Numbered from the stretch's first letter, positions 3,001-53,783 are shown. The stretch is DNA of 64,000 bases from Candidatus Woesearchaeota archaeon (GCA_964612685.1 CAZTCF010000002.1:212-64211), one strand, 5' to 3'. Numbers and translations: made by a program. The notes: a model not told the origin generated them from the sequence alone.

Positions 3001-3060
3001 CAATATCTAGAGAACCACATTCAGAACTTCCAGCACCAGGATTCAATATTATTCTTCTGT
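1..3060 (-). repeat. Intragenic tandem duplication of a roughly 1.5-1.65 kb beta-helix module within the giant gene, seen as two diverged copies (about 1640..3060 and about 1..1640)
   Basis: Parallel peptide landmarks sit about 1650 nt apart. NCSYDSE...RWYY(K/Q)AYVNDSSG appears near 1950 and near 300. (N/Y)xNDSN(E/I)FNFTITQN appears near 1650 and near 10. PG(P/A)...C...TLT(E/G)NISS appears near 3050 and near 1600. Confidence 0.6.
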
Positions 3061-9016: not shown

Positions 9017-9119
9017 TACTTATTATTTATGTAATATACCTTATAAATATATCTATTATTTATTAAAAATACTTATTATATATGTATAAATAATAAACAG
9101 AAATTTGTAGTTATAATAA

Positions 9120-9132
9120 CATTTATAAAACA
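9120..9132 (+). promoter_or_regulatory. Putative archaeal TATA box for a leaderless glyS transcript; the giant gene diverges from the same AT-rich region
   Basis: tttataaaa lies about 25 nt upstream of the GlyRS ATG at 9151. Additional TATA-like ttataaat boxes at 9040-9060 face the minus-strand giant gene. Confidence 0.3.
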
Positions 9133-9150
9133 AAATGTAGTTATCAAAAC

Positions 9151-10872
9151 ATGGCTTATATTGTTAAGCAAAAAATAAATGGAAAGGATTATTTTTATCT
9201 AAGAAAAAGTGTCAGAAGCGGAAATAAAGTAACGAGCAAACACGTTGCATATTTAGGGACAAACAGAGAAGAGGCTGAGAAAAAATATGCAGAAATGATT
9301 AAAAACATTGATTTGAATAAAAAAGAAATTAAAATGGAAAATGAAGAAAAAAACTCAGAAGAAATTGTTGAAGAAAGAGAAGTAAAACCAGAAGAAAAAT
9401 TAAATGAAATAAATTCAATTGCAAGCAAAAGAGGAATCTTTTTTCAAACAGCAAATATTTATGGAGGAAAAGCGGGATTTTTCACTTATGGGCATCTTGG
9501 AAAAATTTTAAAAATGAATTGGGAGAATCTTTGGAGAAAAAATATCTTGGCACTAAACGATAATTTTTATGAAATACAAGGAAATAATATTCTTCCAGAG
9601 CCAGTATTTAAGGCATCTGGACATATAGAAAACTTTAATGATCCAATGACTGAATGTAAAAAATGCCATTTTAGATTCAGAGCAGATACTTTCTTAGAAG
9701 ATAATGGAGTTGAAAATGCAGGATCTATTTCAATCGAGAAAATGAATGAGAAAATGGATGAATTAAAGCTTAAATGCCCAAAATGCGGTGGAGAATTAAT
9801 TCCAATAAAACAGTTTAACATGATGTTTCCGGTAAATATAGGATTCAATGAAGAAAAAGCATATCTTAGCCCAGAAACTGCACAGGCAGCTTATCTTGCA
9901 TTTAAAGAAGAATTCCAGGCAACAAGGAATAAACTTCCTCTGGGGTTAGCAATTATAGATAAAGCATACAGAAATGAAATATCCCCAAGACAAATGTTCT
10001 TCAGATTAAGAGAATTCTCACAAGCAGAATTACAAATATTCTTTGATCCAGATAAAATAAATGAACATGAACAATGGGAAGAAGTTAAAAAGGGTAAATT
10101 AAGAATTAAATTTGCAGATAAAGAATCTGTTGAGGAAGTTGAATGTGAAGAATTAAACAAAAAATTTGAGATTCCTAAATTCTATTTATTCCACGCTTTA
10201 AAAGTCCAAAATTTTTATTTGAAAATTCTTAAGATTCCTAAAGAAAAATTCAGGTTAAGAGAATTAAACAAAGAAGAAAGAGCATTTTATAATAAGTTAC
10301 ATTTTGATGTAGAAGTTCTTTTAGACACTCTGGGAGGATTTAAAGAAGTTGGAGGAATACACTATAGAACAGATCATGATTTACTAGGACATAGCAAGAT
10401 TTCTGGAAAAGATTTAACTGTTTCCTACGAAGATAAAAAGATTCTTCCACATATTTTAGAATTAAGTTTTGGTGTGGATAGAAATGTCTGGACTTTACTT
10501 GATATTTTCTATTCTTTAGGAAAAGAGGGAAGCATGTTTAAATTTCCTCCAAGAATCTCTCCAGTAAAAGCAGCGGTCTTTCCCTTAGTTAAAAGAGAGG
10601 ACTTTGAAAAGATTGCAGATGAAATTGTAAAAGATTTAAGAGAAGAATTTAATATTGCATATGATAAATCTGGAAGCATTGGTAGAAGGTATGCTAGAAA
10701 TGATGAGATAGGAACCCCTTTTTGTATAACAATAGACGATGATTCTTTGAAAAACAAAGATATAACAATTCGAGATAGAAATTCAAGAGTTCAAAAAAGA
10801 GTTAAAATTGAAAAACTAAGAGAGATTTTAAGAAATTTGGTAAACGAAAAGATTTCTTTTAAAGAAATATAA
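9151..10872 (+). CDS. glyS: Glycyl-tRNA synthetase, archaeal/eukaryotic alpha2 type (class II)
   Basis: 573 aa. Class II motif 2-like FRLREFSQAELQIFF, motif 3-like GRRYARNDEIGTPFCITID, and an anticodon-binding C-terminal region. The antisense ORFs 9195-10757 are spurious. Confidence 0.85.
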   Translation: MAYIVKQKINGKDYFYLRKSVRSGNKVTSKHVAYLGTNREEAEKKYAEMIKNIDLNKKEIKMENEEKNSEEIVEEREVKPEEKLNEINSIASKRGIFFQTANIYGGKAGFFTYGHLGKILKMNWENLWRKNILALNDNFYEIQGNNILPEPVFKASGHIENFNDPMTECKKCHFRFRADTFLEDNGVENAGSISIEKMNEKMDELKLKCPKCGGELIPIKQFNMMFPVNIGFNEEKAYLSPETAQAAYLAFKEEFQATRNKLPLGLAIIDKAYRNEISPRQMFFRLREFSQAELQIFFDPDKINEHEQWEEVKKGKLRIKFADKESVEEVECEELNKKFEIPKFYLFHALKVQNFYLKILKIPKEKFRLRELNKEERAFYNKLHFDVEVLLDTLGGFKEVGGIHYRTDHDLLGHSKISGKDLTVSYEDKKILPHILELSFGVDRNVWTLLDIFYSLGKEGSMFKFPPRISPVKAAVFPLVKREDFEKIADEIVKDLREEFNIAYDKSGSIGRRYARNDEIGTPFCITIDDDSLKNKDITIRDRNSRVQKRVKIEKLREILRNLVNEKISFKEI

Positions 10873-10971
10873 TTAATTTTATCGAGGATAAATATTAATA
10901 TTTAATTAATTTGCAAAACACTTATAAAGTTTTAAGGATTTACAATACCAATTAAACATGAGGTGATAAGA

Positions 10972-11049
10972 ATGGCTAAGAAAAAAGCTGCAAAAAAAGT
11001 AGCTAAAAAACCAGCTAAGAAAAAAGCTGCGAAGAAAAAGAGAAAGTAA
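10972..11049 (+). CDS. Unlisted 25-aa lysine/alanine-rich basic peptide (MAKKKAAKKVAKKPAKKKAAKKKRK), possibly a nucleic-acid-binding small protein
   Basis: Strong SD GAGGTGA sits 8 nt upstream of ATG 10972. The TAA stop at 11047 is followed directly by an oligo-T run (tctcttttttttctatttctttattttttaattttt), a typical archaeal terminator. It is shorter than the ORF-track cutoff. Confidence 0.45.
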   Translation: MAKKKAAKKVAKKPAKKKAAKKKRK

Positions 11050-11121
11050 ATCTCTTTTTTTCTATTTCTTTATTTTTTAATTTTTGATTAGTAAGATTTA
11101 TTAAATCAATTCTTCTTTTCA

Positions 11122-12117
11122 TTGTATAAAAAGATGGTAAAAATAGCAATTAATGGTTTAGGAAGAATTGGTAGAGCTGTTTTGAAAATAGCAATTGAAA
11201 AGGGAATAAATGTTGTAGCAATAAATGATTTAGCTAGCATTGAATCAATTGTATACTTGATGAAACACGATTCTGTATATGGGAACTATGAAGGAAAAAT
11301 AGAATTTGGTGAGAATTTCATAAAAATAAACAGGAAAAAGATACTTGTCTTCTCAGAAAAAGAACCTGAAAATTTACCCTGGGGAGAATTGGGAGTAGAT
11401 GTGGTTGTTGAATCAACAGGAAAATTTACAGATAGAGAGGGGGCAAACAAGCACCTTTGGGGAGGAGCAAAGAAAGTTTTAATTTCTGCTCCAGGAAAAA
11501 ATCCGGATATCACAGTGGTTTTAGGGGTTAATGAAAACCAACTAAAAAAAGAACACAAAATAATCTCTATGGCATCCTGTACAACTAATTGCCTAGCCCC
11601 AATTGTTAAGGTTCTTAATGATAATTTCAAAATTGAAAGAGGATATATGACGACAGTACATGCATATACCAATGACCAGGTTATTTTAGATGTTCCCCAT
11701 AAAAAATTAAGAAGGGGGAGAGCAGGAGCAGTAAACCTTATACCTACAACTTCTGGAGCAGCAACTTCTGTTGTTGAAGTAATTCCAGAACTAAAAGGAA
11801 AACTAGATGGATTAGCAATAAGAGCTCCAGTTCCTTGCGGGAGTATAACCGACTTTGTAGCGGTATTAAATGCTCAAGTTACAAAAGAGCAAGTTAATAC
11901 AGCCTTAAAGAATGCTTCAGAAAAAGAATTAAAAGGAATATTAGAATACTCTGAAGAAGAACTAGTCTCATCAGACATAATAAAAAATCCAAGTTCTTCA
12001 ATTGTTGATTCTATCCTAACCCAAGCCAATGGAAACCTGGTTAAAGTTCTCTCTTGGTATGATAATGAGTACGGGTATTCAAATAGAATAGTTGAACTCA
12101 TCAAACGTTTAAGATAA
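11122..12117 (+). CDS. gap: Glyceraldehyde-3-phosphate dehydrogenase, type I (bacterial/eukaryotic GapA-like)
   Basis: N-terminal Rossmann motif VKIAINGLGRIGR and the catalytic ASCTTNCLAP (Cys active site), in a 331-aa protein. The true start is probably MVKIAING at 11134. Confidence 0.9.
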   Translation: MYKKMVKIAINGLGRIGRAVLKIAIEKGINVVAINDLASIESIVYLMKHDSVYGNYEGKIEFGENFIKINRKKILVFSEKEPENLPWGELGVDVVVESTGKFTDREGANKHLWGGAKKVLISAPGKNPDITVVLGVNENQLKKEHKIISMASCTTNCLAPIVKVLNDNFKIERGYMTTVHAYTNDQVILDVPHKKLRRGRAGAVNLIPTTSGAATSVVEVIPELKGKLDGLAIRAPVPCGSITDFVAVLNAQVTKEQVNTALKNASEKELKGILEYSEEELVSSDIIKNPSSSIVDSILTQANGNLVKVLSWYDNEYGYSNRIVELIKRLR

Positions 12118-12150
12118 GACTTAATTAAAGTCCCTAAGCATAAAACAAAA

Positions 12151-13269
12151 ATGAAAACTCTAAATGATTTTGATTTCAAAGGAAAAACGGTCTTGCTTAG
12201 ATCTGATTTAAATTCTGATGTTCAGAATAAAAAACTTCTAAAATCAGAAAGAATAAAAGAAGCCTCAATAACAATAAATGAATTAAAGAAAAAGAAAGCA
12301 AAATTAGTAATTCTTGCACACCAAGGAAGACCGGGGGATGAGGATTTTATCTCATTAAAGCAACACTGCAAACAATTAAACAAATATTCTAAAGTTACGT
12401 TTGTTGAAGACATTATTGGAGAAAAAGCAGAAAAGAAAATAAAAGAATTGAAGGAAGGGGAAGCAATACTCCTAGAAAACGTTAGAAATCTTAAAGAAGA
12501 ATTTGATACAAAACCAAACGCACTTACAAATTTCTTTTCTAAAAACTTTGAAATTTATGTTAATGATGCCTTCTCTGTATGCCATAGACCTCAAGCTTCT
12601 ATACTCCTACCAAAATACATTAAAAAAAGTTGTGCTGGAAGAATATTAGAAAGAGAAGTTAATGCTTTAAAAAAATTAAAATTAAACGGAACCCTTTATA
12701 TCTTAGGGGGAGCAAAGCCGGAAGATAACGTTAAACTTCTTGGAAAAAATAAAGTTTTAAGTTGTGGGCTGTTTGGACAAGTATGTTTAATGAATAAAGG
12801 TAAAAAATTAGGAGAACAAGAGAACTATCTTAGAAGCAGAAAAATATTCATAGATATCCCAAAAGAAAAATTAACCCAAGTTGAAACCCCCTCGGACTTT
12901 GCAGTTAATATAAAAGGTAAGAGAAAAGAAATTCCTGTTGAAAACTTCCCAAATGAAAATGAAATATTTGACATAGGAGAAATAACTCAAAAGAAGTATG
13001 TTCAAGAAATAAAAAATGCAGGTGCAATATACATGAAGGGACCTGCTGGAGATTGCAGTAAAAAACAATTTACAAAAGGAACATTTACAATTCTAAATGC
13101 AGTTGCAAATAGCAAGGCATTTTCGGTTATCGGGGGAGGACATTTAAGCGATGCAATTAAAGCCTCTAAAGTAGATGTAAAAAAATTTGGACATATAAGT
13201 TTAAGCGGGGGAGCTTTATTGAATTACATTGCAGGTGAAAAACTCCCAGGACTTGAAGTTTTAAAATAA
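12151..13269 (+). CDS. pgk: Phosphoglycerate kinase
   Basis: 372 aa. Signature region LLENVRNLKEE and GGGHLSDAIKASK (hinge/ATP region). Adjacent to gap. Confidence 0.8.
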   Translation: MKTLNDFDFKGKTVLLRSDLNSDVQNKKLLKSERIKEASITINELKKKKAKLVILAHQGRPGDEDFISLKQHCKQLNKYSKVTFVEDIIGEKAEKKIKELKEGEAILLENVRNLKEEFDTKPNALTNFFSKNFEIYVNDAFSVCHRPQASILLPKYIKKSCAGRILEREVNALKKLKLNGTLYILGGAKPEDNVKLLGKNKVLSCGLFGQVCLMNKGKKLGEQENYLRSRKIFIDIPKEKLTQVETPSDFAVNIKGKRKEIPVENFPNENEIFDIGEITQKKYVQEIKNAGAIYMKGPAGDCSKKQFTKGTFTILNAVANSKAFSVIGGGHLSDAIKASKVDVKKFGHISLSGGALLNYIAGEKLPGLEVLK

Positions 13270-13291
13270 AAAAGATGATAAAAAAACAAAT

Positions 13292-13969
13292 ATGAAAATA
13301 ATCCAAGCTAGAAATTATAAAGAGCTCTCAAAAATATCTTCAGAGATTATTCTTGAAGAGATAAAAAACAAACCTAATCTAACTCTTGGATTTGCAACTG
13401 GAAAAACCCCCTTACAAACCTACAAAAATCTGGTAAACGCTTACAAAAACAAAAAAGTGGATTTTTCTAAGATAAATACATTCAATTTAGATGAGTTTTA
13501 TCCAATAAAAAGCACAAATAAAAAAAGTTATTCATATTATATGTTCAACAACCTTTTCAACAAAACTAATTTCCAAAGAAAGAACATCAATCTATTAAAC
13601 GGAGAAACAAAATACCCCGAAAAAGAATCTAAGGATTATGAAGCTAAAATAAAAAAACACCCAATAGATTTACAGATTTTAGGAATAGGTTTAAACGGAC
13701 ATATTGGGTTCAATGAACCAAACACTCCTCCAAACTCAAAAACCCATTTAACAGAATTAACCCATATCAAAGGAAAAGCCCTAACGATGGGAATTTCTAC
13801 AATCCTTAAATCAAAAAAACTCCTTTTACTAGCTTCTGGTAAAAAGAAGGCAAAAATAATAAAAGATTTAATGAATTCCAAACCAAACAAAAAACTCCCA
13901 GCAAGCTTCCTTAAAAACCACAAAGATTTAACAATAATTATTGATAATGATGCAGGTTCATTATTATAA
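13292..13969 (+). CDS. nagB: Glucosamine-6-phosphate deaminase / 6-phosphogluconolactonase family protein (NagB-like)
   Basis: 225 aa. LGFATGKTP near the N-terminus and the LGIGLNGHIGFNEP motif typical of NagB/Pgl-fold isomerases. Confidence 0.65.
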   Translation: MKIIQARNYKELSKISSEIILEEIKNKPNLTLGFATGKTPLQTYKNLVNAYKNKKVDFSKINTFNLDEFYPIKSTNKKSYSYYMFNNLFNKTNFQRKNINLLNGETKYPEKESKDYEAKIKKHPIDLQILGIGLNGHIGFNEPNTPPNSKTHLTELTHIKGKALTMGISTILKSKKLLLLASGKKKAKIIKDLMNSKPNKKLPASFLKNHKDLTIIIDNDAGSLL

Positions 13970-14139
13970 AGAGATTAACTCTTAAATTTTTAGTATTTAT
14001 CCAAAAAAATAACTTTACTCCTAATTATTAAGTACTCATATTTACAATCCTGTTACAGATAACTTAATTTAATAAGAGATTATTCATAACTTAATATTTA
14101 AAAACTATCGAGGATATATTATTTTAGAGGTAGTAAAAT

Positions 14140-15285
14140 ATGAAAAAAGGGGCAAAATTACTAATAACACCAGAAATGATTAAACCTTCTTCAAAGGAAT
14201 TAGAGGTAATTGGAACAATCAACCCTGCAGCTGCAAGGGGGAGAGATGGAAAAGTAATTCTGTACGTGAGAGTTATAGAAAGGCTAAAGGTGTTAGAAGA
14301 TAAAAAATACTTTTATTCTCCAAGGATGGTGGGAGAAAAAGATTATGAAATTAAAATAGATAAATTTCCAAGGGAAGAAGTTGCAACAAATTCCGAGTTC
14401 GATATAATATTTCATGATTCAACAAAAAGACTCACATTTATCTCCCATTTAAGAAGAGTAGTTATGGATGAATCAGGATTAAATATACTCTCAATAGACA
14501 AAAAACCTACTTTCTATGGTATATCTAGTGATTCAGAATTGGGAGTAGAAGATCCAAGAATAGTTGAGATAGAAGGAAAATATGTTATGACTTATGTAAG
14601 CCTATCAAGAAAAGAAAACATCTCAACCTCTATTGCATTCTCAGACGATTTAATTAACTGGGAGAGAAAAGGAATAATCTTTGGGGAGCAAGATAAAGAT
14701 GTAGTTTTATTCCCTGAGAAAATAAAGGGATGGTATATTGCTTTTGATAGACCAGAGGGAAATTTTCAATTTACCCCTCCGCATATATGGATAGCACAAT
14801 CTGATGATTTGCTCTGCTGGGGAAAGTTAAAATCTATAAGCATATCTAAAAAAGAAGATAAAGATTATGGAAGAATAGGCCCAGGATGCCCTCCTGTAAA
14901 AACAAATAAAGGATGGTTATTAATCTACCACTCGGTAAGAAGTGAAGATAACACTCAAAAAGAAGAAGATAAACTCTATATTTATTCTGGCTCCGCTGCA
15001 TTATTTGATTTAAAAAATCCAATAAAATTATTAGCAAAATCAGAACCCATTATATTACCCGACCAAGAATATGAACTTGAATTATACCAAAAGAAGAGAG
15101 TAGTTTTTCCCACAGGAATTGTTGTAGATAAAAATGGAAAAGATTTGTTAATTTATTCTGGAGGAAGAGATGTTGTAACAAGTGTAAGAAAGATTTCAAT
15201 GGAAAAGATAATGGATGCCTTAAAAGAAGTGAATAAAAACAACAAGAAAGAAAAATCCAAAAGTAAACCAAAAAAGAAAAAATGA
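14140..15285 (+). CDS. GH130-family glycoside phosphorylase/hydrolase (beta-mannoside phosphorylase-like, 5-bladed beta-propeller)
   Basis: 381 aa. GVEDPRIVEIEGKYVMTYV and later DRPEG / GPGCPP segments are typical of GH130/GH43-like propellers. C-terminal Lys-rich tail. Confidence 0.5.
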   Translation: MKKGAKLLITPEMIKPSSKELEVIGTINPAAARGRDGKVILYVRVIERLKVLEDKKYFYSPRMVGEKDYEIKIDKFPREEVATNSEFDIIFHDSTKRLTFISHLRRVVMDESGLNILSIDKKPTFYGISSDSELGVEDPRIVEIEGKYVMTYVSLSRKENISTSIAFSDDLINWERKGIIFGEQDKDVVLFPEKIKGWYIAFDRPEGNFQFTPPHIWIAQSDDLLCWGKLKSISISKKEDKDYGRIGPGCPPVKTNKGWLLIYHSVRSEDNTQKEEDKLYIYSGSAALFDLKNPIKLLAKSEPIILPDQEYELELYQKKRVVFPTGIVVDKNGKDLLIYSGGRDVVTSVRKISMEKIMDALKEVNKNNKKEKSKSKPKKKK

Positions 15286-16400
15286 AAGACAATACCAAAC
15301 TAGCCTATCAAAAAGCAGTATCCTGCTTAAAAGCATGCTCAACCCCAAATGGAATGTTTGCATCCGGAGCTAAAGATGGATATGATGCAATCTGGTCAAG
15401 AGATTCCATGATAAGTTCTTTAGGAGCAAGTCTGATAAAAACAAAAAAAGAAAAACAAACATTAAAGAATACTTTCAAGGAAAGCATAAAAACCTTAAAA
15501 TACGGACAAAGTAAAAATGGACAGATACCAAATTGTGTTGATAAATTTTCAAAAAGAGACCCACATGTAGATTTCAAGACAATAGATTCTTCTTTATGGT
15601 ATATAATCGGAAATTACATTTACAAAGAAAGATATAATGCTAATTTATTCTTCCTATCAAAAAAGTGTTCAATAAAAAAGACCCTGAAATGGTTAAGATG
15701 CCAAGATACTGGAGAAAATGGACTTCCCACACAACTTCCAACCTCAGACTGGCAGGATGCTTTCCCCCATAGATATGGATATACAATAAACACTCAAGCA
15801 CTTTATTACAAAGTATTGAACCTTCTTGGAAAAACAAAAGAAGCAGAAAAACTAAAAAAGATAATCAATGAAGATAAAGAAGATGGATTATGGGAAGGGG
15901 ATTTTTATCTTCCCTACAGATGGAAGAACCATGGAGTTTATAGAGAAGTAGGAGATTGGTTTGATTCTCTTGGAAATCTTCTAGCAATAATATTTGATTT
16001 AGCTGACAAAAAAAGAGCTGAAAAAATACTAAGCTATATTGAAAAAAATAAAATAAATCAACCTTATCCTGTGAGAGTTATTTACCCTCCTATAACTGAA
16101 GATAGTCCACACTGGCAAAGTTATTTTTTAGATTGTGATGCAGGTACTCCCCATCATTATAGCAATGGAGGAATCTGGGGATATGTTGGAGGATTCTATA
16201 TTCTTGCATTAATCAAAATGAATAAAATGAAAAGAGCAGAAGAAGAATTGAAAAAGTTAGCTGAAAGAAACTTAAATGGAGATTTTCCTGAATGGACAAA
16301 CCCCTTAACTAAAGAACACCATGGAAATGTTCAAGCTTGGGAAGCAGGAATGTATATTCTTGCATACGAATCACTTAAAGCGAAAAAGGTTTTGATTTAG
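15282..16400 (+). CDS. Six-hairpin (alpha/alpha)6 glycoside hydrolase-like protein (glycogen-debranching GDE_C / GH63-like)
   Basis: 372 aa. GAKDGYDAIWSRDS near the N-terminus, with Trp/Tyr-rich helical repeats. Start overlaps the upstream stop (ATGA coupling). Confidence 0.4.
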   Translation: MKDNTKLAYQKAVSCLKACSTPNGMFASGAKDGYDAIWSRDSMISSLGASLIKTKKEKQTLKNTFKESIKTLKYGQSKNGQIPNCVDKFSKRDPHVDFKTIDSSLWYIIGNYIYKERYNANLFFLSKKCSIKKTLKWLRCQDTGENGLPTQLPTSDWQDAFPHRYGYTINTQALYYKVLNLLGKTKEAEKLKKIINEDKEDGLWEGDFYLPYRWKNHGVYREVGDWFDSLGNLLAIIFDLADKKRAEKILSYIEKNKINQPYPVRVIYPPITEDSPHWQSYFLDCDAGTPHHYSNGGIWGYVGGFYILALIKMNKMKRAEEELKKLAERNLNGDFPEWTNPLTKEHHGNVQAWEAGMYILAYESLKAKKVLI

Positions 16401-17428
16401 AATTCTTTTGGAAGTAGTTTTTTCAATTCATTTGTATTAATTTTATATGCTCTTATAAAAGAATCGTTAACATGTGCATACAATATCCCTTCATCTTTTC
16501 CACTTCTTAAAAAATCTGAACTAAATGTAATTGTTCTTGCATCGGGATCCTCAAATAAACATTCGGGTGCAATCCAAGGAACTTTTCCAGTTTCAGGATT
16601 ATAAATTATCAATCCAGGCCTAAATTTTCCATGAACTTTTTCTCCATTAACAATCTTTTTGACTTCCCTCCCATTTATTATACCCACGACTAAATCTTTA
16701 TTTTTAAGAGAAATAAAATCCCTAGGAAAAAGAATCATTGGAGAAGTTTCCCCCTTACACCAAGAATATTTCATTTTTCTAGGATCTAAAACAATCTCCT
16801 TAAATTTCCACTCCCCTCCAAGTTCTTTTCCTTCAGCCGAAATAGTTACTGACAATTCATCATTATTAATCACAAGTTGAGCTTCACTTAAATTAATCCT
16901 ATATCCTTTTTTATTTATAGGGGAGATTGTAACTTCCTTAAATCCTCTGAATTCTCCAACAGGAGATAAAACGGGTTCCGTTGCAGTTAATTTTTCTATT
17001 GAAGCCCCTTGAGCATGTCCCAAATAAACTGCATATCCCACTTTTTCTTTGTACTTAAAAGCAATCGTAAAATAAACATGCTTAATTTTTCCCTCATTTA
17101 TTATATCGGGATCTTCTAACCCAATAAAATATTTATCCTTCCCGGATAATTTTCTTATTACCTCGTTAATTCCCTTTATCTCCAAATCCCCTCTCTTTTT
17201 CCATTTTAACCCCTCCTTGCTTTCAACAACTATTAATTTACTCTCATCAATAAATCCTGGCTTATCTGGAGTTCCCTGACTCTTAGTAATCTCCCTTGCT
17301 AAACCAAGATAAGGATTCTTTGTTTCCTTATCAATTGAAATCGCCATTACTCTCTGTTCAGCTTTAACTGTCCCAAAAACAGGTTCAGAATACATAGAAA
17401 CAGCATTATTTAATTTCACCAATTTCAT
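16397..17428 (-). CDS. GH130/DUF377-like beta-propeller glycosidase-related protein
   Basis: 343 aa. GLEDPDIINEGKIKHVYFTIAF and ILYAHVNDSF motifs resemble the GH130 family. Convergent with the six-hairpin GH. Confidence 0.4.
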   Translation of the reverse strand: MKLVKLNNAVSMYSEPVFGTVKAEQRVMAISIDKETKNPYLGLAREITKSQGTPDKPGFIDESKLIVVESKEGLKWKKRGDLEIKGINEVIRKLSGKDKYFIGLEDPDIINEGKIKHVYFTIAFKYKEKVGYAVYLGHAQGASIEKLTATEPVLSPVGEFRGFKEVTISPINKKGYRINLSEAQLVINNDELSVTISAEGKELGGEWKFKEIVLDPRKMKYSWCKGETSPMILFPRDFISLKNKDLVVGIINGREVKKIVNGEKVHGKFRPGLIIYNPETGKVPWIAPECLFEDPDARTITFSSDFLRSGKDEGILYAHVNDSFIRAYKINTNELKKLLPKEF

Positions 17429-17458
17429 TATTAATTAAATATAGAGAGTTATTTAAAA

Positions 17459-18652
17459 TTACTCTTTTAATTCTAGAACTTCTTGTTCATCAGATTCTTC
17501 TTCAGATTCTTCCTCGTTCATATCAAATTCTTCTTTTATTATATCAAGCATCCTCTTAGCTATAACATTGTAATCAAAATTAGCAACGGCATGTTCTCTT
17601 CCTGCCATTCCCATCTCTTCTCTTAAATTTTTATCCATCAATAACATTTGAGTATATTTCTTCAAATCATCCACATTAGCCCTATATCCAAATGTTTTTG
17701 GGACTGTGAATTTCATCTTGCTTTGTTCATTAAATCCCATATAAGGATAAACCCATTCCTCACTCAGCTTAACTTCCTCTGCAACTCCGGCTAAAAATCC
17801 TGTCTTCCCATGAATTATTGTCTCTGCAGGCCCTCCCACATTTATTGAAATAACCGGTTTACCACAAGCCATTGCCTCAACCTGTATCATCCCAAACCCT
17901 TCTATTCTTGAAGGAGCTGCATAAATATCACACGCGTTAAGCATATTAGCTACAAATTCTGGTGAAAAGGTATCATCTAAGAATATTATTTTTTCCCTTA
18001 TATCTAATTCTTCGGCAAGAATCTCCTCAAATTCCCTCCATTTTTCTGCACACTCACTTGGCCAGGATTTACACACATAAACCCAATCTTTGAATTCTTT
18101 GTTTATTTCAGCTAAAGCTTTCATCATCTCCTGAGCACCCTTTGAGGTAACATCTCCTCCCATAGTTAAAATCATTGTTTCATTATCCTTTACTCCTAAA
18201 AGTCTTCTTAATTTAAGATTCTCTTCAGGATTATTGTTTGGTTTGAAAAGTTTTGTATCAATACCTATATGCATTGGAATAATTTTAGATACATCCACCC
18301 CATCTCTTTCATAAATACTTCTTACCCAGGCACTTGTTGTGAACATTAATCTTAATTTTTCAAATTCTTCTCTGTAATTAGCAACCCATCCATCTGCATT
18401 AAACCAAGGAATCACAATATGTCCGTAATGTTGTGTGTCTTGAACAATTTCAGGAACATTTCCCCAGAAACCTATTCCAATAACAAAATCAGGTTTTAAG
18501 TATTTTAAATAAAATTCTTTCTGAATACTTTCTTTGTAATGACATTCAAAAACTTCTACTCCAAGATTTCTTAATCCACGAGCCAAATAATGCCCTTGAA
18601 GACTTACCCCGTCAGATTCAACAGGATAAGGATAAAGTAATAAACATCTCAT
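17459..18652 (-). CDS. GT4-family glycosyltransferase (group 1)
   Basis: 397 aa. EX7E-type motif region RIEGFGMIQVEAMACGKPVIS. Acidic C-terminal tail. Confidence 0.75.
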   Translation of the reverse strand: MRCLLLYPYPVESDGVSLQGHYLARGLRNLGVEVFECHYKESIQKEFYLKYLKPDFVIGIGFWGNVPEIVQDTQHYGHIVIPWFNADGWVANYREEFEKLRLMFTTSAWVRSIYERDGVDVSKIIPMHIGIDTKLFKPNNNPEENLKLRRLLGVKDNETMILTMGGDVTSKGAQEMMKALAEINKEFKDWVYVCKSWPSECAEKWREFEEILAEELDIREKIIFLDDTFSPEFVANMLNACDIYAAPSRIEGFGMIQVEAMACGKPVISINVGGPAETIIHGKTGFLAGVAEEVKLSEEWVYPYMGFNEQSKMKFTVPKTFGYRANVDDLKKYTQMLLMDKNLREEMGMAGREHAVANFDYNVIAKRMLDIIKEEFDMNEEESEEESDEQEVLELKE

Positions 18653-18660
18653 TTTAATTT

Positions 18661-19287
18661 TTATTTTCTCAAATCAAATGCTTCGATTTCTTTGCAAGAT
18701 TCTTCTTCAAATCCTCCCTTCTTGTATCCATAAACCTCTTCAATTATCATTTTCTTCATTTTAAGATAAGGTTTTTTTAATTTTATAAGTTTATCTGCAT
18801 TAGAGTTGTATATTGCATATCCCTGATACTTATTTTTAATTTTCTTGTAAGAGAAAAAATAAATTTCCTCTGCAAGCAATAATCCTCTACGCAACATCTC
18901 CTCTACAGCTTTGTGCACATCCAAGTGTCTTACATGTCCATATTCACCTTTTTTCCCATGTGTATAAAGAGCATCATATAACTTATTCTGGGTTACTTCT
19001 AAAATTCTTTTTATTATCTCTTCTGAAGAAACTTCTTTGTATACTCCTGATTCTTCTCCATCATCTAAATCAAAAATATATCCTTTAACCCCTAAAACCT
19101 CACAGGCTTTTTTGAATTTAGGGTATCTATCCTTATCCTCCTTTCTGCATAAAGAAATGACTGTAATATTAAATCCTCCTTTCTCCTTCATCTTCAACAA
19201 AGTTCCTCCCATCCAAATTGTCTCATCGTCTGGATGAGCAACAACAACAAGAACTTCTTTATTTTTATTCACAACACTCCTCACCAT
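18661..19287 (-). CDS. PIG-L/LmbE family N-acetylglucosaminyl deacetylase
   Basis: N-terminal VVVAHPDDETIWMGG motif (zinc-binding HPDDE). Confidence 0.75.
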   Translation of the reverse strand: MVRSVVNKNKEVLVVVAHPDDETIWMGGTLLKMKEKGGFNITVISLCRKEDKDRYPKFKKACEVLGVKGYIFDLDDGEESGVYKEVSSEEIIKRILEVTQNKLYDALYTHGKKGEYGHVRHLDVHKAVEEMLRRGLLLAEEIYFFSYKKIKNKYQGYAIYNSNADKLIKLKKPYLKMKKMIIEEVYGYKKGGFEEESCKEIEAFDLRK

Positions 19288-19375
19288 TTCTCCAACAGGA
19301 AAGTTTTTAATTAAATAAATCTTTCTACAAGGATAAAAAGAGGATGAATAAAGAGGTTATAGTTAATAATAAAAA

Positions 19376-20305
19376 ATGAATTTTGATGTTGTAAGTTTTG
19401 GTTCTGCTGTTGTGGATGTGTTCATTCACACAGATGTATCTGAAAAAAGAGGATTCATGAATTATCCAATAGGAGAAAAAATACTCATAAAAGATTTAAA
19501 ATTTGATGTTGGGGGAGCAGGAACAAATACTGCTGTTGCATTTTCAAGATTAGGATTAAAAACAGGATGTATATGCGAATTTGGAGATGATGAGAATGGG
19601 AGAAGAATAAAAGATTTGCTTAAAAAAGAGAAGGTTAAGTTTTTAGGAAAGACAGTGAAAGGAGAATTAACGGGATATTCTGTTGTTTTAGATAGTAAAG
19701 GGGGAGATAGAACCATTCTTACATATAAAGGAGCAAATGATGAAGTAAGTTTAAGTGATATAAGTAAGTTCAAGGCGAGATGGTTGTATTTTAGTTCTCT
19801 TTTAGGAAAGAGTTTTGAAACTCAAAAACAAATTGCAATTAAATCAAAAGAGAAAAGAGGAACTAAAATTGCCTACAACCCAAGCAGTTATCAAATAAAA
19901 AATTTAAACATCCTCCCCTTACTAAAAATAACTGATATCTTAATATTAAACAAAGAAGAGGCAGAGATGCTCTTAAAAAAATATAAACCAAATGAAAACA
20001 ATTTACTTTTAGGGCTATATAAGATTACGAAAGGGATCATTGTTATAACAGACAAAAACAAACCAATCTCCTGTTATGATGGAAATAGAAAATACTCAAT
20101 AAAACCCCACAATGAAATTAAAGTTGTTGAAAGAACAGGTGCTGGAGATGCATTTGCTTCAGGATTCGTTGGGGGACAGATAGCAGAAAAAACAATTACT
20201 CGCTCTTTAGAATTAGGAATAAAAAATTCTGAATCAGTTATACAACACTTTGGAGCTAAAAACAATTTAATCCGAATGAAATTAAAAGAAAAAGAACAGC
20301 TATAA
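19376..20305 (+). CDS. PfkB-family carbohydrate kinase (ribokinase-like; candidate phosphofructokinase/sugar kinase)
   Basis: DVGGAGTNTAVAFSRLG N-terminal motif and C-terminal TGAGDAFASGFV PfkB signature. Sits immediately upstream of FBA and TIM. Confidence 0.8.
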   Translation: MNFDVVSFGSAVVDVFIHTDVSEKRGFMNYPIGEKILIKDLKFDVGGAGTNTAVAFSRLGLKTGCICEFGDDENGRRIKDLLKKEKVKFLGKTVKGELTGYSVVLDSKGGDRTILTYKGANDEVSLSDISKFKARWLYFSSLLGKSFETQKQIAIKSKEKRGTKIAYNPSSYQIKNLNILPLLKITDILILNKEEAEMLLKKYKPNENNLLLGLYKITKGIIVITDKNKPISCYDGNRKYSIKPHNEIKVVERTGAGDAFASGFVGGQIAEKTITRSLELGIKNSESVIQHFGAKNNLIRMKLKEKEQL

Positions 20306-20353
20306 AAATAAATAAAAAAATAAACTAAAAGAAAAGATAACCTAAAAAATAAA

Positions 20354-21109
20354 ATGAAACCAATCAACCTAAAAAAACTAACAACAAAAGGAAAAGCGCT
20401 TTATCTTGCATATGACCAGGGTTTAGAACACGGACCAAGCGATTTCAATGATAAAAATGTCGATCCTAGATATATAATTGATATTGCTAAGAAAGGAAAA
20501 TACAATGGAATTGTATTCCAGAAAGGAATAGCAGAGAAATACAACAAAGAAATCAAAGCAAGTAAAATACCCCTCATAGTAAAGCTTAATGGAAAAACTA
20601 ATTTATTCAAGGGAGAACCTATATCTAGACAACTATGTACTGTTGATGAAGCGATAAAACTGGGAGCATCCGCAGTTGGATATACTATTTACATTGGAAG
20701 CGATTCTGAAGATGAATCTTTCCAGGAATTTGAAGGGATACAAAGAGAAGCTCACAAGAAAGGACTTCCAGTAATAACCTGGATATATCCAAGAGGAAAA
20801 TCCCTCAAAGGTAAAAAACCAGAAGAGTTAATGGTATATGCAACACGAACAGCCTTAGAGATTGGAGCAGATATTGTTAAAATTCAATACGCAGGAAAAT
20901 TAAAAGACCTCCAATGGGCTGTTAAGTCTGCAGGTAAAACTAAAGTTGTTGTTGCAGGTGGAACAAAGAAAGGAGAAAAAGAACTCATCAAACAAATTCA
21001 TGAAATTATGGAAGCTGGATGTATTGGACTTGCAATTGGAAGAAATGTTTGGCAACATCCTAAGCCACTTGAAATTACAAAGAAGATAAAGGATATAGTG
21101 TTTAAATAA
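20354..21109 (+). CDS. fba: Class I fructose-bisphosphate aldolase, archaeal DhnA type
   Basis: 251 aa TIM-barrel. LIVKLNGKTN, VKIQYAG and GLAIGRNVWQ regions match the archaeal FbaB/DhnA family. Confidence 0.65.
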   Translation: MKPINLKKLTTKGKALYLAYDQGLEHGPSDFNDKNVDPRYIIDIAKKGKYNGIVFQKGIAEKYNKEIKASKIPLIVKLNGKTNLFKGEPISRQLCTVDEAIKLGASAVGYTIYIGSDSEDESFQEFEGIQREAHKKGLPVITWIYPRGKSLKGKKPEELMVYATRTALEIGADIVKIQYAGKLKDLQWAVKSAGKTKVVVAGGTKKGEKELIKQIHEIMEAGCIGLAIGRNVWQHPKPLEITKKIKDIVFK

Positions 21110-21208
21110 ATAATAAAAAATTAAATTATAATAACTAACCTAGCTCATCATCATAATCAACCTACATTAAGGAGTTGTATAGATAACTAAACCTTACTCA
21201 AACAAAAA

Positions 21209-21844
21209 ATGAAAAAACCAATCATTGTAATAAATCTTAAAACATATCAACAAGGTGAAAAATCAGTTAAAATTGCAAAGGAAATTGAGAGAGTTGATAA
21301 AAATATAATTCTGGGAGTTCAAGCAAGTGATATTTATGAGATTGCAAAGAAAACAAAACTTAAAGTTTATGCACAACATGTTGATCCCTTTGAACCCGGC
21401 AGAAATACTGGATATATCCTGCCGGAAGCTGTAAAGAAAGACAAAGCAATAGGAGCTTTCCTTAATCATTCGGAACACAAGCTAACTCTAGATGTAATAA
21501 AAAAAACCATTGCACGTTGTAAAAAAATAAAACTAAAGACAATGGTTTTTGTGAAAGATATTAAACAAGCTAAAGAAATTGAAAAACTCCACCCAGACTA
21601 TCTTATATACGAACCTCCAGAACTTGTAGCAGGAAATATTTCCATTAGCTCAGCAAAGCCTGAAATAATTAAGAATCTTTCAAAGAAGTTAAAGAAAACA
21701 ACACCCTTCCTGGTTGGTGCTGGAATAAAAACCCGAGAAGACATAACCCTATCAATGAAGTTAGGAGCATCAGGCATTGCAGTCTCTTCAGCAATAACAC
21801 AGGCTAAGATACCTGGAAAGAAATTGAAGGAACTTATAGCTTAA
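21209..21844 (+). CDS. tpiA: Triosephosphate isomerase, short archaeal type
   Basis: 211 aa. PIIVINLKTY, NHSEHK and IYEPPELVAGNISISSAKPE match the archaeal TIM signature (EPPELIGTG variant). Confidence 0.8.
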   Translation: MKKPIIVINLKTYQQGEKSVKIAKEIERVDKNIILGVQASDIYEIAKKTKLKVYAQHVDPFEPGRNTGYILPEAVKKDKAIGAFLNHSEHKLTLDVIKKTIARCKKIKLKTMVFVKDIKQAKEIEKLHPDYLIYEPPELVAGNISISSAKPEIIKNLSKKLKKTTPFLVGAGIKTREDITLSMKLGASGIAVSSAITQAKIPGKKLKELIA

Positions 21845-22176
21845 TACTTAAATCTCTTTTCGTATGTTTTATGATCCATCCATTCTAGAACAATTGAGAG
21901 AACTTCAATTCCATCTCTACCTACAGAATAAATAAGTCTCCATCCTCTTGGTAAATCATATTTCCATAAATTATCTATATTATATTTTGAAACATAAATT
22001 GGAGGTATTAATCTCTTGGGTATTTGTATGCCTGAGAAAGCATTTAATTTTAAGTTATCCAAAGCTTGTTTTACATGATTATACAATTGTTGTTCTTCTA
22101 ATTTACCTTTTTTTAGTTCTTCTAGACTTTTTCTAAGACTTTCTTCTGCAAAAAATACTTTAGATTTTATTTCCAT
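21841..22176 (-). CDS. RelE/ParE-superfamily toxin-like protein with N-terminal extension
   Basis: C-terminal half LPRGWRLIYSVGRDGIEVLSIVLEWMDHKTYEKRF resembles the RelE/YoeB core (yRiiYei...H.K.Y). Overlaps the upstream partner ORF by 10 nt. Confidence 0.5.
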   Translation of the reverse strand: MEIKSKVFFAEESLRKSLEELKKGKLEEQQLYNHVKQALDNLKLNAFSGIQIPKRLIPPIYVSKYNIDNLWKYDLPRGWRLIYSVGRDGIEVLSIVLEWMDHKTYEKRFKY

Positions 22177-22436
22177 TCTAAATTCTGTTTTTTAAGATAT
22201 TTTTTTACCAGTATTGGATTCCAAATCCAACCTATTTTTCCTTCTCTGTCTACGGCTATCCTATTGGAATAAAGCAGATAATCAATAATAACTGAAAATG
22301 TTTGGTACATCATCTTTTTTGGGAGTCTTAACCAGAGTTGTTTTTTGGTAAATTCTCCGCTAGTTTGATAAATTAATCTTTCTACCATTAATACACTATC
22401 TAAACGAGGATAGTGCAATATTTTTTGAATATCCAT
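22167..22436 (-). CDS. Hypothetical 89-aa protein, upstream partner of the RelE-like gene (candidate antitoxin of unrecognised family)
   Basis: Co-oriented, overlapping the toxin-like gene, TATA-like tttataaattt upstream. No recognisable RHH/HTH motif seen. Confidence 0.35.
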   Translation of the reverse strand: MDIQKILHYPRLDSVLMVERLIYQTSGEFTKKQLWLRLPKKMMYQTFSVIIDYLLYSNRIAVDREGKIGWIWNPILVKKYLKKQNLEWK

Positions 22437-22505
22437 GGTTATATATACTTATATACCTTTATAAATTTTATTATTCTATATTTTAAGAAGAAACTTTAAA
22501 ATCAT

Positions 22506-23171
22506 TTGATTCTTGGAAAGAGTATGCCTTACAAATTATCTCCATCATCTTTATCTTTAATGAATGAATGTCCAAGATGTTTCTGGCTAGATAAGCATAA
22601 TGTCTGGAAAAGACCCTCAGGTATTTTCCCCTCTCTTCCTTCTGGAATGGATGGAATATTGAAAACTCATTTTGATAAGTTCAGAGATAAAGGAATATTA
22701 CCTCCTGAGCTGTGCGATAATGGAGAGTGCACAAATATGAAATTATTCAATGAACCTGAATTAATGAAATCCTGGAGAAATAATCTTAAAGGAATAAGAT
22801 GGGAAGATAAAAAAGGGAATATATTATTTGGAGCAGTTGATAATATACTCCAGAAAGGAGAAAAGTTAATTGTTTTAGATTATAAAACAAGAGGATACCC
22901 TGTAAAAGATGATACAGCAGAACATTACCAGAATCAGTTAGACATTTACAATTTCTTGCTTAGAAAAAACGGATATAAAACAGAAGATTATGCTTTTTTG
23001 TTGTTTTATATTCCTAAAGAAGTCGCAGATACAGGAGAAATAATTTTTGATACAACATTAAAGAAGATGAAAATATATGTGAAGAATGCAGAGGATATAT
23101 TCAACAAAGCAATTAAGCTATTAGATGAAGATTGTCCAACTAAAACTTGTGAGTGGTGTGAGGGAAGATAA
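22506..23171 (+). CDS. Cas4-like PD-(D/E)XK nuclease with Fe-S cysteine cluster (RecB-family, DUF83-like). No cas/CRISPR context
   Basis: N-terminal CPRC, C-terminal C-x4-C-x2-C (CPTKTCEWC), D...DYK motif (LIVLDYKTRG) and QNQLDIY (QxxxY) motif, in that order as in Cas4/AddB nuclease domains. Confidence 0.6.
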   Translation: MILGKSMPYKLSPSSLSLMNECPRCFWLDKHNVWKRPSGIFPSLPSGMDGILKTHFDKFRDKGILPPELCDNGECTNMKLFNEPELMKSWRNNLKGIRWEDKKGNILFGAVDNILQKGEKLIVLDYKTRGYPVKDDTAEHYQNQLDIYNFLLRKNGYKTEDYAFLLFYIPKEVADTGEIIFDTTLKKMKIYVKNAEDIFNKAIKLLDEDCPTKTCEWCEGR

Positions 23172-27214: not shown

Positions 27215-27260
27215 CTAAAACCTCTCCCTCTTCCCATACTTCGTATGCAGCAACTTTTCT
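27215..27260 (-). repeat. Copy 3 of the conserved 3-prime-end element, here inside the coding 3-prime end of hydA (encodes ...LLHTKYGKRERF*)
   Basis: cctctccctcttcccatacttcgtatgcagcaacttttctgc with aattaatt upstream. About 90% identical to copies 1 and 2 over about 35 nt. Confidence 0.8.
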
Positions 27261-28921: not shown

Positions 28922-29106
28922 TTTCTATCAGACTCTTTTTCTTTTTCAGATAATTTTGAATAAGGTTGTTTTATTTGTTTTTTCCATCTTTCTATATTTT
29001 CTTTTGTAAGATTCTTAAGCATATAATTAGTCCAGTGGGCCCATTGCTTATGTTCTAGATTAGCTAACTTTTCTATTAACGTTTTATCTTCTTGATTTAT
29101 TTTCAT
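28888..29106 (-). CDS. Small Trp/Lys/Glu-rich protein (72 aa from MKINQEDKTL...) encoded between hydB and hydA, translationally coupled
   Basis: ATG at 29106..29104 overlaps the hydB TGA stop (29105..29103) as ATGA. Its 3-prime end overlaps the hydA start by 34 nt. The track's longer 28888..29190 ORF extends into the hydB coding region. Confidence 0.4.
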   Translation of the reverse strand: MKINQEDKTLIEKLANLEHKQWAHWTNYMLKNLTKENIERWKKQIKQPYSKLSEKEKESDRKWARRVLQTLK

Positions 29107-30239: not shown

Positions 30240-30275
30240 TTTTTGTATTATTTTATTTGTTAATTTTTAATTTGA

Positions 30276-39977: not shown

Positions 39978-39980
39978 AAT

Positions 39981-40080
39981 AGCCCCACCAGGATTCGAAC
40001 CTGGGTCCCGGCCTCTCTTCATCTTATCTATTTTCAAGATACCAAAGGGCCGTATACTTGACCACTGTACTATGGGGCTA
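39981..40080 (-). tRNA. tRNA-Gln (anticodon TTG) containing a 27-nt intron at the canonical 37/38 position
   Basis: Minus strand AGCCCCA-TA-GTAC-AGTGGTCAA-GTAT-A-CGGCC-CTTTGG[TATCTTGAAAATAGATAAGATGAAGAG]A-GGCCG-GGAC-CCAGG-TTCGAAT-CCTGG-TGGGGCT-A. The exons give a 73-nt cloverleaf with archaeal A1-U72. Confidence 0.7.
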
Positions 40081-53782: not shown

Positions 53783-53783
53783 C

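Follow-up and report, generated by a model that had tools for sequence, protein, structure and literature searches.

A conserved DPANN gene cluster that may lead mannosides and amino sugars to fructose-6-phosphate, with an undescribed GH130/GT108-like propeller family

By what route might an archaeon with a reduced genome bring carbon into glycolysis? DPANN archaea and bacteria of the Candidate Phyla Radiation (CPR) are mostly uncultured and their diet is largely guessed, and a concrete candidate for such a carbon-entry route is encoded in a 64,000-nucleotide stretch from Candidatus Woesearchaeota archaeon (GCA_964612685.1 CAZTCF010000002.1:212-64211; hereafter the window, with all positions counted from its first letter). 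At positions 11122-21844, genes for glycoside-active and amino-sugar enzymes lie among genes of lower glycolysis, an arrangement that a first-pass annotation of the DNA had read as the salvage of N-glycans through Man-beta-1,4-N-acetylglucosamine (GlcNAc). Our analysis points to another substrate, and we give about even credence to the reading that the locus is the core of a conserved DPANN supercluster of cytoplasmic enzymes that take mannosides and amino sugars to fructose-6-phosphate (Fru-6-P). The region holds eleven open reading frames (ORFs), all of them exactly where the annotation had placed them:

11122-12117, plus strand: type I (bacterial-type) glyceraldehyde-3-phosphate dehydrogenase (GAPDH; PF00044, PF02800, TIGR01534)
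12151-13269, plus strand: phosphoglycerate kinase (PGK; PF00162, full length)
13292-13969, plus strand: NagB-family glucosamine-6-phosphate deaminase, short form (PF01182, 81 bits)
14140-15285, plus strand: GH130 beta-1,2-mannoside phosphorylase-like enzyme, GH130_4-like with a lid loop (PF04041)
15282-16400, plus strand: six-hairpin (alpha/alpha)6 glycosidase, distantly like GH100 and clan GH-G (PF12899, PF06202)
16397-17428, minus strand: GH130/GT108-like five-bladed propeller of an undescribed family, 343 aa, matched by fold only
17459-18652, minus strand: GT4 retaining glycosyltransferase (PF00534; EX7E motif EGFGMIQVE)
18661-19287, minus strand: PIG-L/LmbE-family zinc de-N-acetylase (PF02585)
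19376-20305, plus strand: PfkB-family sugar(-phosphate) kinase, putatively a fructose-6-phosphate 1-kinase (PF00294)
20354-21109, plus strand: archaeal class IA fructose-1,6-bisphosphate aldolase (FBA; PF01791, 151 bits)
21209-21844, plus strand: archaeal triose-phosphate isomerase (TIM), short archaeal type (PF00121, NF003302)

These genes form three transcription blocks. The first, on the plus strand, runs from GAPDH through PGK, NagB and GH130 to the six-hairpin gene, with gaps of 33, 22 and 170 bp followed by a 4-bp overlap; the second, on the minus strand and convergent on the first, comprises PIG-L, GT4 and the 343-aa gene (gaps of 8 and 30 bp); and the third, divergent from PIG-L, holds PfkB, the aldolase and TIM on the plus strand. 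Ten of the eleven genes passed profile searches, the exception being the 343-aa gene, so that the annotated identities stand for ten, while the call of a second GH130-like gene is borne out by fold and not by profile. Neither transmembrane segments nor signal-like N-termini were found in any enzyme of the cluster, and the chemistry is therefore taken to be cytoplasmic. The window has a GC content of 31%, encodes RadA and aIF2-alpha, and its proteins have their close homologs in DPANN archaea labelled at source as of Woesearchaeota/Pacearchaeota (Nanobdellota) type. The matching locus is present again in metagenome assemblies from ENA and JGI, the organism being one that occurs in anaerobic digesters, and the bin 'Diapherotrites archaeon ADurb.Bin253' holds its nearest relative in the genome collection.

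The neighbourhood itself is conserved. In 80 genome loci, each retrieved through its homolog of the 343-aa gene, we searched for counterparts of the window genes and counted them within a 10-kb range in the 32 DPANN loci with the 343-aa gene and in a subset of 13 loci flanked by 9 kb or more on each side; as the loci are related by descent, the counts are not independent. Among the 32, GH130 was found in 21, the six-hairpin gene in 19, GT4 in 18, PIG-L in 17 and NagB in 9, and 15 had a glycolysis gene; the 13 full-flank loci gave 11, 11, 10, 10 and 5 for GH130, six-hairpin, GT4, PIG-L and NagB, with at least one of PfkB, FBA, TIM, GAPDH and PGK in 6. The gene clustering exceeds chance. The order PIG-L, GT4 and propeller on one strand, convergent on GH130 and six-hairpin (and, in some, NagB), holds down to 41% identity of the anchor protein, with PfkB-FBA-TIM and PGK-GAPDH as flanks in about half of the complete loci. 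Major facilitator superfamily (MFS) transporter genes lie inside the cluster in four relatives (L009, L012, L013 and L027 among the numbered loci), the third of which also has a TrmB sugar regulator. CPR bacteria of Paceibacteria type carry a different operon, ordered as a cupin mannose-6-phosphate isomerase (PMI), a GH130, the 343-aa propeller and a 640-aa tandem double GH130 (L078, 8650-12884; also L053, L062, L070, L071, L074 and L045). In the double GH130 the phosphate-binding HR and YH residues are present in the C-terminal half only, and in the other CPR copies of GH130 the Arg is replaced by Ser or Thr; these operons thus combine PMI with one canonical phosphorylase domain and three non-phosphorylase GH130-like domains.

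The substrate of the canonical GH130 enzyme (14140-15285) can be approached through its active site. The protein scores 135.6 bits against PF04041 (cut-off 26), and its best matches in the PDB are Lin0857 (5b0p), Teth514_1788 (9fj8), Teth514_1789 (7fip) and Uhgb_MS (E 2e-38 to 3e-35), with 135 bits for Lin0857 versus 73 for UhgbMP, the beta-1,4 enzymes lying about 60 bits lower. GH130 enzymes are told apart by the proton-donor Asp, by a phosphate-binding Arg and His, and by a residue pair in the +1 subsite, which is Y/R in beta-1,4 enzymes, including those acting on Man-GlcNAc, E/K in beta-1,2 enzymes and E/R in beta-1,3 enzymes (PMC7660257, Table 2; PMC12814180). Residues D138, R204, H264, R44, E137, K186 and D344 make up the 'phosphorylase, beta-1,2' pattern of that table and are kept in all 17 DPANN orthologs. 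As E137 and K186 stand where UhgbMP has Y103 and R150, the protein lacks the signature of the GH130_2 enzymes of Man-beta-1,4-GlcNAc. Given this E/K linkage pair, and because the nearest solved relatives are beta-1,2 phosphorylases, the enzyme likely prefers a beta-1,2-mannoside and not Man-beta-1,4-GlcNAc or the N-glycan core. The N-glycan part of the first-pass annotation thus does not hold up, the window also containing no endo-N-acetylglucosaminidase, NagA or secreted glycosidase. The alignment extends through the lid region of Lin0857, a lid that restricts that enzyme to di- and trisaccharides, that is, to a degree of polymerisation (DP) of 2-3 (PMC12814180). We found nothing specific in the literature on GH130 in DPANN or CPR.

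Among characterised systems, Lin0857 of Listeria innocua (GH130_4), Uhgb_MS, and Teth514_1788/1789 of Thermoanaerobacter (GH130_6) share with the window enzyme the catalytic Asp, the Arg/His and the E/K pair, and like it are cytoplasmic, its lid region being of Lin0857 type. Unlike them, the window GH130 is archaeal, its activity is predicted from sequence, and its gene is coupled to a GH130-like paralog, a GH100-like enzyme, GT4/PIG-L, NagB and glycolysis genes. The Bacteroides pathway for the N-glycan core (BT1033/UhgbMP, GH130_2) belongs to the same CAZy family and likewise has a cytoplasmic phosphorylase that saves ATP; however, it has Y/R where E/K is found here, and partner genes of GH18, GH92 and SusCD type are missing from our cluster.

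The second GH130-like protein, of 343 aa, has no useful match by sequence in Pfam, NCBIfam or the PDB, and a match to an HD-domain protein (E 0.036) was dismissed as chance. Seven further, more divergent family members likewise found no match in Pfam or NCBIfam, PF04041 included. Its AlphaFold2 model, built from 51 homologs, is a five-bladed propeller (pLDDT 94.8) whose top 30 Foldseek matches among solved structures are all GH130 (E ~1e-12, TM-score 0.63-0.71), with the GT108 mannosyltransferase/phosphorylases (MTPs) of Leishmania lower down the list. The family has an invariant GLEDPD, which corresponds to the proton-donor motif G-x-EDPR (GVEDPR) of GH130. Across 80 DPANN and CPR sequences R45, E105, D106, E165, E182 and D322 are invariant and K164 is present in 79; the spacing from K164 to E182 (+18) is identical to that from K186 to R204 in GH130, within a common K[DE]V..xP....G.Y pattern. 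The donor Asp and the E/K pair are thus retained, while E182 falls at the position of the phosphate-binding Arg (R168 in UhgbMP) and N252/G253 at that of the His (H231). A carboxylate in place of the phosphate site is a hallmark of GH130 beta-1,2-mannosidases, whereas strict GT108 transferases have His; Glu, not His, occupies the Arg switch position here, and the protein does not qualify as a strict GT108 mannosyltransferase. Because an invariant Glu sits where phosphorylases bind phosphate, we suggest that the 343-aa protein is probably a cytoplasmic, non-phosphorolytic, hydrolase-like enzyme of beta-mannosides.

Among characterised enzymes, the GH130_3 beta-1,2-mannosidases BT3780 and BACOVA_03624 (Cuskin et al. 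2015, as cited in PMC7660257) have in common with it the propeller fold (its matches include 3qc2 and 3r67), the donor Asp, the E/K pair, the lack of the phosphate-binding Arg/His and a carboxylate in that region. It differs from them in having no detectable profile relationship and no signal peptide, and in belonging to a separate small family confined mostly to DPANN and CPR. A search of 1.84 billion representative proteins with the family profile returned 113 representatives at E<=1e-3 and no bridge to canonical GH130; the longer, weaker matches were also without a Pfam domain. Members are known from DPANN archaea, many CPR bacteria and one haloarchaeon. The haloarchaeal homolog, 37% identical, is encoded at 9995-11032 of locus L060 on the chromosome of the cultured Salinarchaeum laminariae R26, where it has no GH130 or otherwise informative neighbours.

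One contig, L018, comes from essentially the same species and matches nearly all of window positions 6415-15200 at 99-100% nucleotide identity. Between window positions 15200-17433 and positions 1-2300 of the contig, identity becomes a mosaic of 86-95% inside the six-hairpin gene and is down to 57-69% over the full length of the 343-aa gene, at which the contig stops. The pattern suggests that a recombination breakpoint lies, or an allele was replaced, where the two genes converge, or that strain heterogeneity broke the assembly.

The six-hairpin gene matches PF12899 (GH100) with 52.3 bits (cut-off 23.6) over residues 227-361 only and PF06202 (GDE_C) with 44 bits, also above cut-off; both matches are limited to the C-terminal third, and with them the annotation's six-hairpin call, like its GH130 call, survives profile searching. 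The AlphaFold2 model is a complete (alpha/alpha)6 barrel (pLDDT 84), matched in Foldseek by GH100 invertases (TM-score ~0.7, 17-18% identity) and then by GH15-like, GH133, GH63 and GH78 structures. An invariant Glu in an FPEW motif (E337) aligns with the FPEY region of InvA/InvB at an identity too low for inferring the substrate. The protein has 1152 homologs, mostly in DPANN. A mannobiose epimerase of AGE type, the classic partner of GH130_1, was ruled out for this gene, as its profile and fold matches are GH100, GH63 and GH133.

Amino-sugar chemistry is represented by NagB and PIG-L. NagB aligns end to end with NagB of Bacillus subtilis (2bkv, E 1e-47), keeps the NLDE and GHIGFNEP motifs, and adjoins GH130 in 9 relatives. 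PIG-L scores 52 bits against PF02585 (cut-off 28); phmmer gave no PDB match, and H18-P-D20-D21 with H118/H121 forms the HXDD + H metal/base motif with a permitted spacer, the range being 97-148 aa in the LmbE/PIG-L family (PMC4101496). Because the NagB-LmbE fusion family PRK02122 matches both proteins, we consider the deacetylase to be functionally tied to the deaminase. In the same operon as PIG-L, GT4 scores 96 bits against PF00534 (cut-off 26) with an intact EX7E motif, and its closest solved structures are MshA, GlgM, sucrose-phosphate synthase (SPS), PimB' and BshA. As in MshA-MshB, BshA-BshB and PIG-A-PIG-L, a GT4 here adjoins an LmbE-family enzyme with intact HXDD + H; in contrast to the MshA-MshB and BshA-BshB pairs, the window proteins score far below the equivalog cut-offs, and the third gene of the operon encodes a GH130-like propeller and not a ligase or mannosyltransferase of known type. 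In being linked to NagB, the operon also resembles catabolic systems such as that of TkDac, the LmbE enzyme of the Thermococcus chitin pathway.

Among the glycolysis genes, GAPDH reaches 420 bits against TIGR01534 (cut-off 367), gene callers placing its start in the metagenome copies at 11134; PGK reaches 294 bits against PF00162 (cut-off 27) and TIM 223 bits against NF003302 (cut-off 132). The GAPDH is of the bacterial/eukaryal type I and not the archaeal type II, whose model gives just 26 bits, which suggests that part of the glycolytic block was acquired by inter-domain transfer. The aldolase, a DeoC-family gene, is below the cut-off of the NCBIfam equivalog NF040816 (193 bits versus 430) and matches the FBPA of Thermoproteus tenax (1ojx) with 250 bits (E 2e-73), as against 129 bits for the ADH synthase MJ0400 (E 2e-36) and 66 bits for LsrF; by these PDB scores ADH synthase, LsrF and deoxyribose-phosphate aldolase were ruled out.

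PfkB scores 128 bits against PF00294, keeps the NXXE (LNKEE) and GAGD (TGAGD) motifs, and lacks equivalents of K43 and E143 of ribokinase. A nucleoside kinase was considered as well; the matches to MJ0406 and to the Thermoplasmatales nucleoside kinases were its weakest, which is not decisive. In all seven relatives that possess PfkB, its gene is immediately 5' of the aldolase gene, and from this gene context we infer that it acts as a phosphofructokinase (PFK) on Fru-6-P. A PfkB-family ATP-dependent PFK in Aeropyrum pernix provides an archaeal precedent, and T. tenax has a pfp-fba operon, which is similar in that the class IA aldolase gene directly follows a sugar-phosphate kinase gene and different in that the kinase here is of PfkB type, not a pyrophosphate-dependent PFK, and that TIM comes next. 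Our literature search yielded nothing specific on PfkB-type PFK in DPANN. Descriptions of Woesearchaeota genomes routinely report neither a phosphofructokinase nor a complete glycolysis (PMC8421398), and the window PfkB is a candidate for this missing PFK.

Four further sugar genes lie in the window 9 kb from the core:

30808-31140, plus strand: single-domain cupin, like type II mannose-6-phosphate isomerase (PF01050, 62 bits)
31146-31961, plus strand: ROK-family hexose kinase, of glucose, mannose or N-acetylhexosamine kinase type (PF00480, 150 bits)
31963-32832, plus strand: GHMP kinase, HddA/fucokinase-like, of anomeric sugar kinase type (PF00288, PF08544)
32996-35221, minus strand: 741-aa fusion of a GT4 and a C-terminal six-hairpin-like domain (PF00534, PF13439)

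In 14 relatives the cupin PMI is no more than 10 kb from the propeller gene, and it stands directly upstream in the CPR operons and in L008 and L033. An ortholog of ROK belongs to the cluster in 7 relatives, one of which, L021, has it inside the core, and the GHMP kinase co-clusters (139 bits against NF049969, under the cut-off) in 6. The GT4 fusion, which also has weak GH88 and C5-epimerase matches, has full-length orthologs within 10 kb of the propeller gene in 10 relatives (45-61% identity) and stands directly downstream in L008 and L033. Since all four genes co-cluster with the core in many relatives, the functional unit is larger than 11122-21844. The proposal that glycan and amino-sugar genes are linked to lower glycolysis in this reduced genome is therefore upheld by the recurrence of the link across relatives and strengthened by the PMI and ROK genes.

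The mechanism that we propose builds on the observed families and folds, active-site signatures and conserved neighbourhood. The GH130_4-like phosphorylase would split short beta-1,2-mannosides with phosphate into alpha-mannose-1-phosphate (Man-1-P) and mannose or the aglycone, and the 343-aa enzyme would hydrolyse beta-mannosides that do not suit the phosphorylase. The GH100-like six-hairpin enzyme would cut an alpha-glycosidic link and release the alpha-linked unit, and the LmbE/PIG-L enzyme would take the N-acetyl group off a GlcNAc residue, so that, after phosphorylation, NagB could convert glucosamine-6-phosphate (GlcN-6-P) to Fru-6-P and ammonia. Mannose would reach Fru-6-P by way of mannose-6-phosphate (Man-6-P) through the ROK kinase and the cupin PMI at 30.8-32 kb; a conversion of Man-1-P into Man-6-P is likewise conjectural, because there is no phosphomannomutase in the window. 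Fru-6-P would then enter the adjacent PfkB, acting as PFK, and pass through the class IA aldolase, TIM, GAPDH and PGK. Throughout this scheme we infer the substrates and the direction of flux. Fru-6-P had already been named as the point of entry by the annotation, and the NagB route and the ROK/PMI route agree with it on this. The linear pathway drawn there keeps its general flow to Fru-6-P, although it overlooks the minus-strand operon of PIG-L, GT4 and the GH130-like gene, which looks biosynthetic.

Several observations count against this scheme. No transporter, secreted glycosidase, NagA, endo-N-acetylglucosaminidase or phosphomannomutase was found within the window, and its ORFs of at least 110 aa include no enolase, phosphoglycerate mutase, pyruvate kinase, NagA, GlmS, phosphomannomutase or GDP-mannose pyrophosphorylase. 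The glycolysis genes are adjacent in just about half of the relatives. NagB, with 216.4 bits against TIGR00502, falls just under the equivalog cut-off of 236.9 and has a deletion of about 16 aa in the active-site lid region relative to B. subtilis NagB, which may alter substrate handling or regulation. PfkB reaches no NCBIfam equivalog cut-off, its top model being ribokinase (110 bits versus a cut-off of 300), and with FBA, TIM, GAPDH and PGK all reversible, the direction of flux hangs on PfkB and NagB alone. The mapping of E182 to the phosphate site comes from an hhalign probability of 7% together with motif order and spacing, and not from structural superposition. Finally, the PIG-L-GT4 operon resembles MshA/MshB and BshA/BshB, a pairing that is classically biosynthetic, and the cluster has two GT4s; with one of them in an operon with PIG-L, the implication is that the cell makes some or all of the glycosides itself.

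That last point leads to an alternative that we regard as possible, if on the doubtful side, namely that the cluster serves a self-made cytoplasmic reserve of glycosides or oligomers, comparable to glycogen or to Leishmania mannogen. GT4 and PIG-L would make an alpha-linked glucosamine (GlcN) or GlcNAc unit and GH130-type enzymes would build beta-1,2-mannosyl units from Man-1-P or GDP-Man, all of which would later be remobilised into glycolysis by the phosphorylase, the six-hairpin hydrolase, NagB and PMI. Such a cycle would explain why each linkage appears to have both a maker and a breaker, the retaining GT4 facing an alpha-glycosidase-type six-hairpin enzyme and the GH130-like protein facing the GH130 phosphorylase. 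Beta-1,2-mannosides are rare in the environment, and the window has no transporter; in relatives, however, the MFS and TrmB genes point to uptake. GT108 MTPs are among the fold matches of the 343-aa model, and the domain mix of the CPR operons resembles the set of transferase-only and phosphorylase MTPs in Leishmania, yet the propeller has Glu and not the His of strict GT108 enzymes at the Arg position, so that a hydrolase fits better. GH130s specific for beta-1,2 linkages can also transfer from GDP-Man, an activity that the authors of that study hold to be probably non-physiological, and the lid on the phosphorylase would limit it to DP2-3 (PMC12814180); nor was a GDP-mannose pyrophosphorylase found in the window. 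Compared with the mannogen cycle of Leishmania (GT108 MTP1-7), the cluster is alike in having several GH130-fold paralogs of which only some carry the phosphate-binding Arg, in its predicted beta-1,2-mannoside chemistry and in its link to central carbon metabolism, and unlike in the Glu at the switch position, the prokaryotic hosts, the lack of GDP-Man synthesis genes near the cluster and in being known from genes alone. A broader form of this idea, which we consider rather improbable, is that DPANN and CPR share a GH130-fold set running a mannogen-like cycle, in which a beta-1,2-mannoside reserve is built and later drained into glycolysis by one canonical beta-1,2 phosphorylase and several non-phosphorolytic paralogs, always with a cupin mannose-6-phosphate isomerase, and to which DPANN would have added a GlcN-glycoside branch (GT4, PIG-L, six-hairpin and NagB) and PfkB as PFK. 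If it were true, these cells would lay down a sugar reserve in times of supply, with the PFK step supplied by PfkB in DPANN.

The same biosynthetic features could be turned outwards. NagB in reverse, PMI, the kinases, the GT4s and PIG-L might supply glycosylation of the cell envelope, including a giant, membrane-anchored, sequon-rich protein encoded directly upstream, with the nearby glycolysis/gluconeogenesis genes, reversible in FBA, TIM, GAPDH and PGK, as suppliers of Fru-6-P. Every characterised pair of a GT4 and a PIG-L enzyme is biosynthetic, one of the two GT4s, the fusion, weakly matches Agl16, and an anomeric kinase of GHMP type suits sugar activation. We nevertheless find surface-glycan synthesis unlikely: the most conserved core consists of the degradative GH130s, their hydrolase-like relative and the six-hairpin glycosidase, the aldolase has a kinase and not a fructose-1,6-bisphosphatase as its neighbour, the window contains no oligosaccharyltransferase, flippase or nucleotidyltransferase, and CPR bacteria have the core of GH130, propeller and PMI without these GT4s. 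Less probable still is the annotated salvage of the N-glycan core by phosphorolysis of Man-beta-1,4-GlcNAc, deacetylation by PIG-L, deamination by NagB and glycolysis. It draws on the membership of Man-GlcNAc phosphorylases in GH130, on the NagB-LmbE fusion family, on the catabolic role of an LmbE-type deacetylase in the Thermococcus chitin pathway (PMC4101496) and on the sequon-rich protein nearby, but E/K replaces the Y/R pair in both GH130-like proteins, the nearest relatives of solved structure all act on beta-1,2 linkages, with UhgbMP and other beta-1,4 enzymes well behind in score, and neither an endo-beta-N-acetylglucosaminidase nor an alpha-mannosidase family was detected in the window. 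Finally, the glycan and glycolysis genes could be unrelated neighbours in a compact genome, a reading that draws on the relatives, about half of which have no glycolysis gene within 10 kb, and on CPR, where such genes never stand next to the propeller gene. We hold such coincidence to be very improbable, since the adjacency recurs where the anchor is just 48-57% identical and the flanks are otherwise rearranged, NagB follows 22 bp 3' of PGK on the same strand, and a rough estimate of chance adjacency is ~5-10% of loci versus the 6 of 13 observed.

The enzyme families and sugar-utilisation clusters described here are individually known already. What the route to Fru-6-P via mannosides and amino sugars adds is the conserved coupling to glycolysis genes in DPANN together with a candidate PfkB-type PFK. 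To the CAZyme field, the 343-aa family is predicted to be a new, so far unclassified branch of the GH130/GT108 fold with a carboxylate replacing the phosphate site, a compact and highly conserved family without a Pfam model that is common to two ultra-small-cell radiations of different domains. Its homolog in Salinarchaeum laminariae may offer a genetic entry point.

Several neighbours of the cluster deserve mention. Upstream, at 2-9019 (minus strand, truncated by the start of the window), a giant protein of >3006 aa with an N-terminal transmembrane anchor carries 150 N-X-S/T sequons, as against 71.5 +/- 6.9 in composition-preserving shuffles (z = 11), in line with the sequon richness noted by the annotation; its sequon density is about 5 per 100 aa, that of the cytoplasmic enzymes in the cluster 0.28 per 100 aa, and it is probably a heavily N-glycosylated surface protein. 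TIM is directly followed, at 21841-23171, by an ORF with weak similarity to ParE/YoeB toxins, its 89-aa partner and the gene of a PD-(D/E)XK nuclease, all of which also stand behind TIM in the metagenome copies and mark the downstream edge of the island. About 5 kb downstream of the cluster, at 27215-30722 (minus strand), genes for an [FeFe]-hydrogenase large subunit, a NuoF-like subunit and a NuoE-like (2Fe-2S thioredoxin-like) subunit make up the gene set of bifurcating HydABC-type hydrogenases. A HydA ortholog also adjoins the sugar cluster in L011, and such a hydrogenase fits an outlet for reducing equivalents, that is, the fermentative disposal of NADH.

The gene at 25535-27133 (minus strand) encodes a serpin of 532 aa (PF00079, 387 bits); its first 110 residues contain several hydrophobic segments, which suggests a protein that is secreted or anchored in the membrane. 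Rfam has a 100-nt tRNA match at 39980-40079 (minus strand, 54 bits) that is absent from the ARAGORN output and is probably an intron-containing archaeal tRNA. Further along, 49341-58768 (minus strand) carries a type IV pilus or archaellum-like set with an A24 prepilin peptidase, a 762-aa T2SSE-type ATPase, a 732-aa membrane protein and several small ORFs without a Pfam match, and a C25-family peptidase is encoded at 63044-63976.

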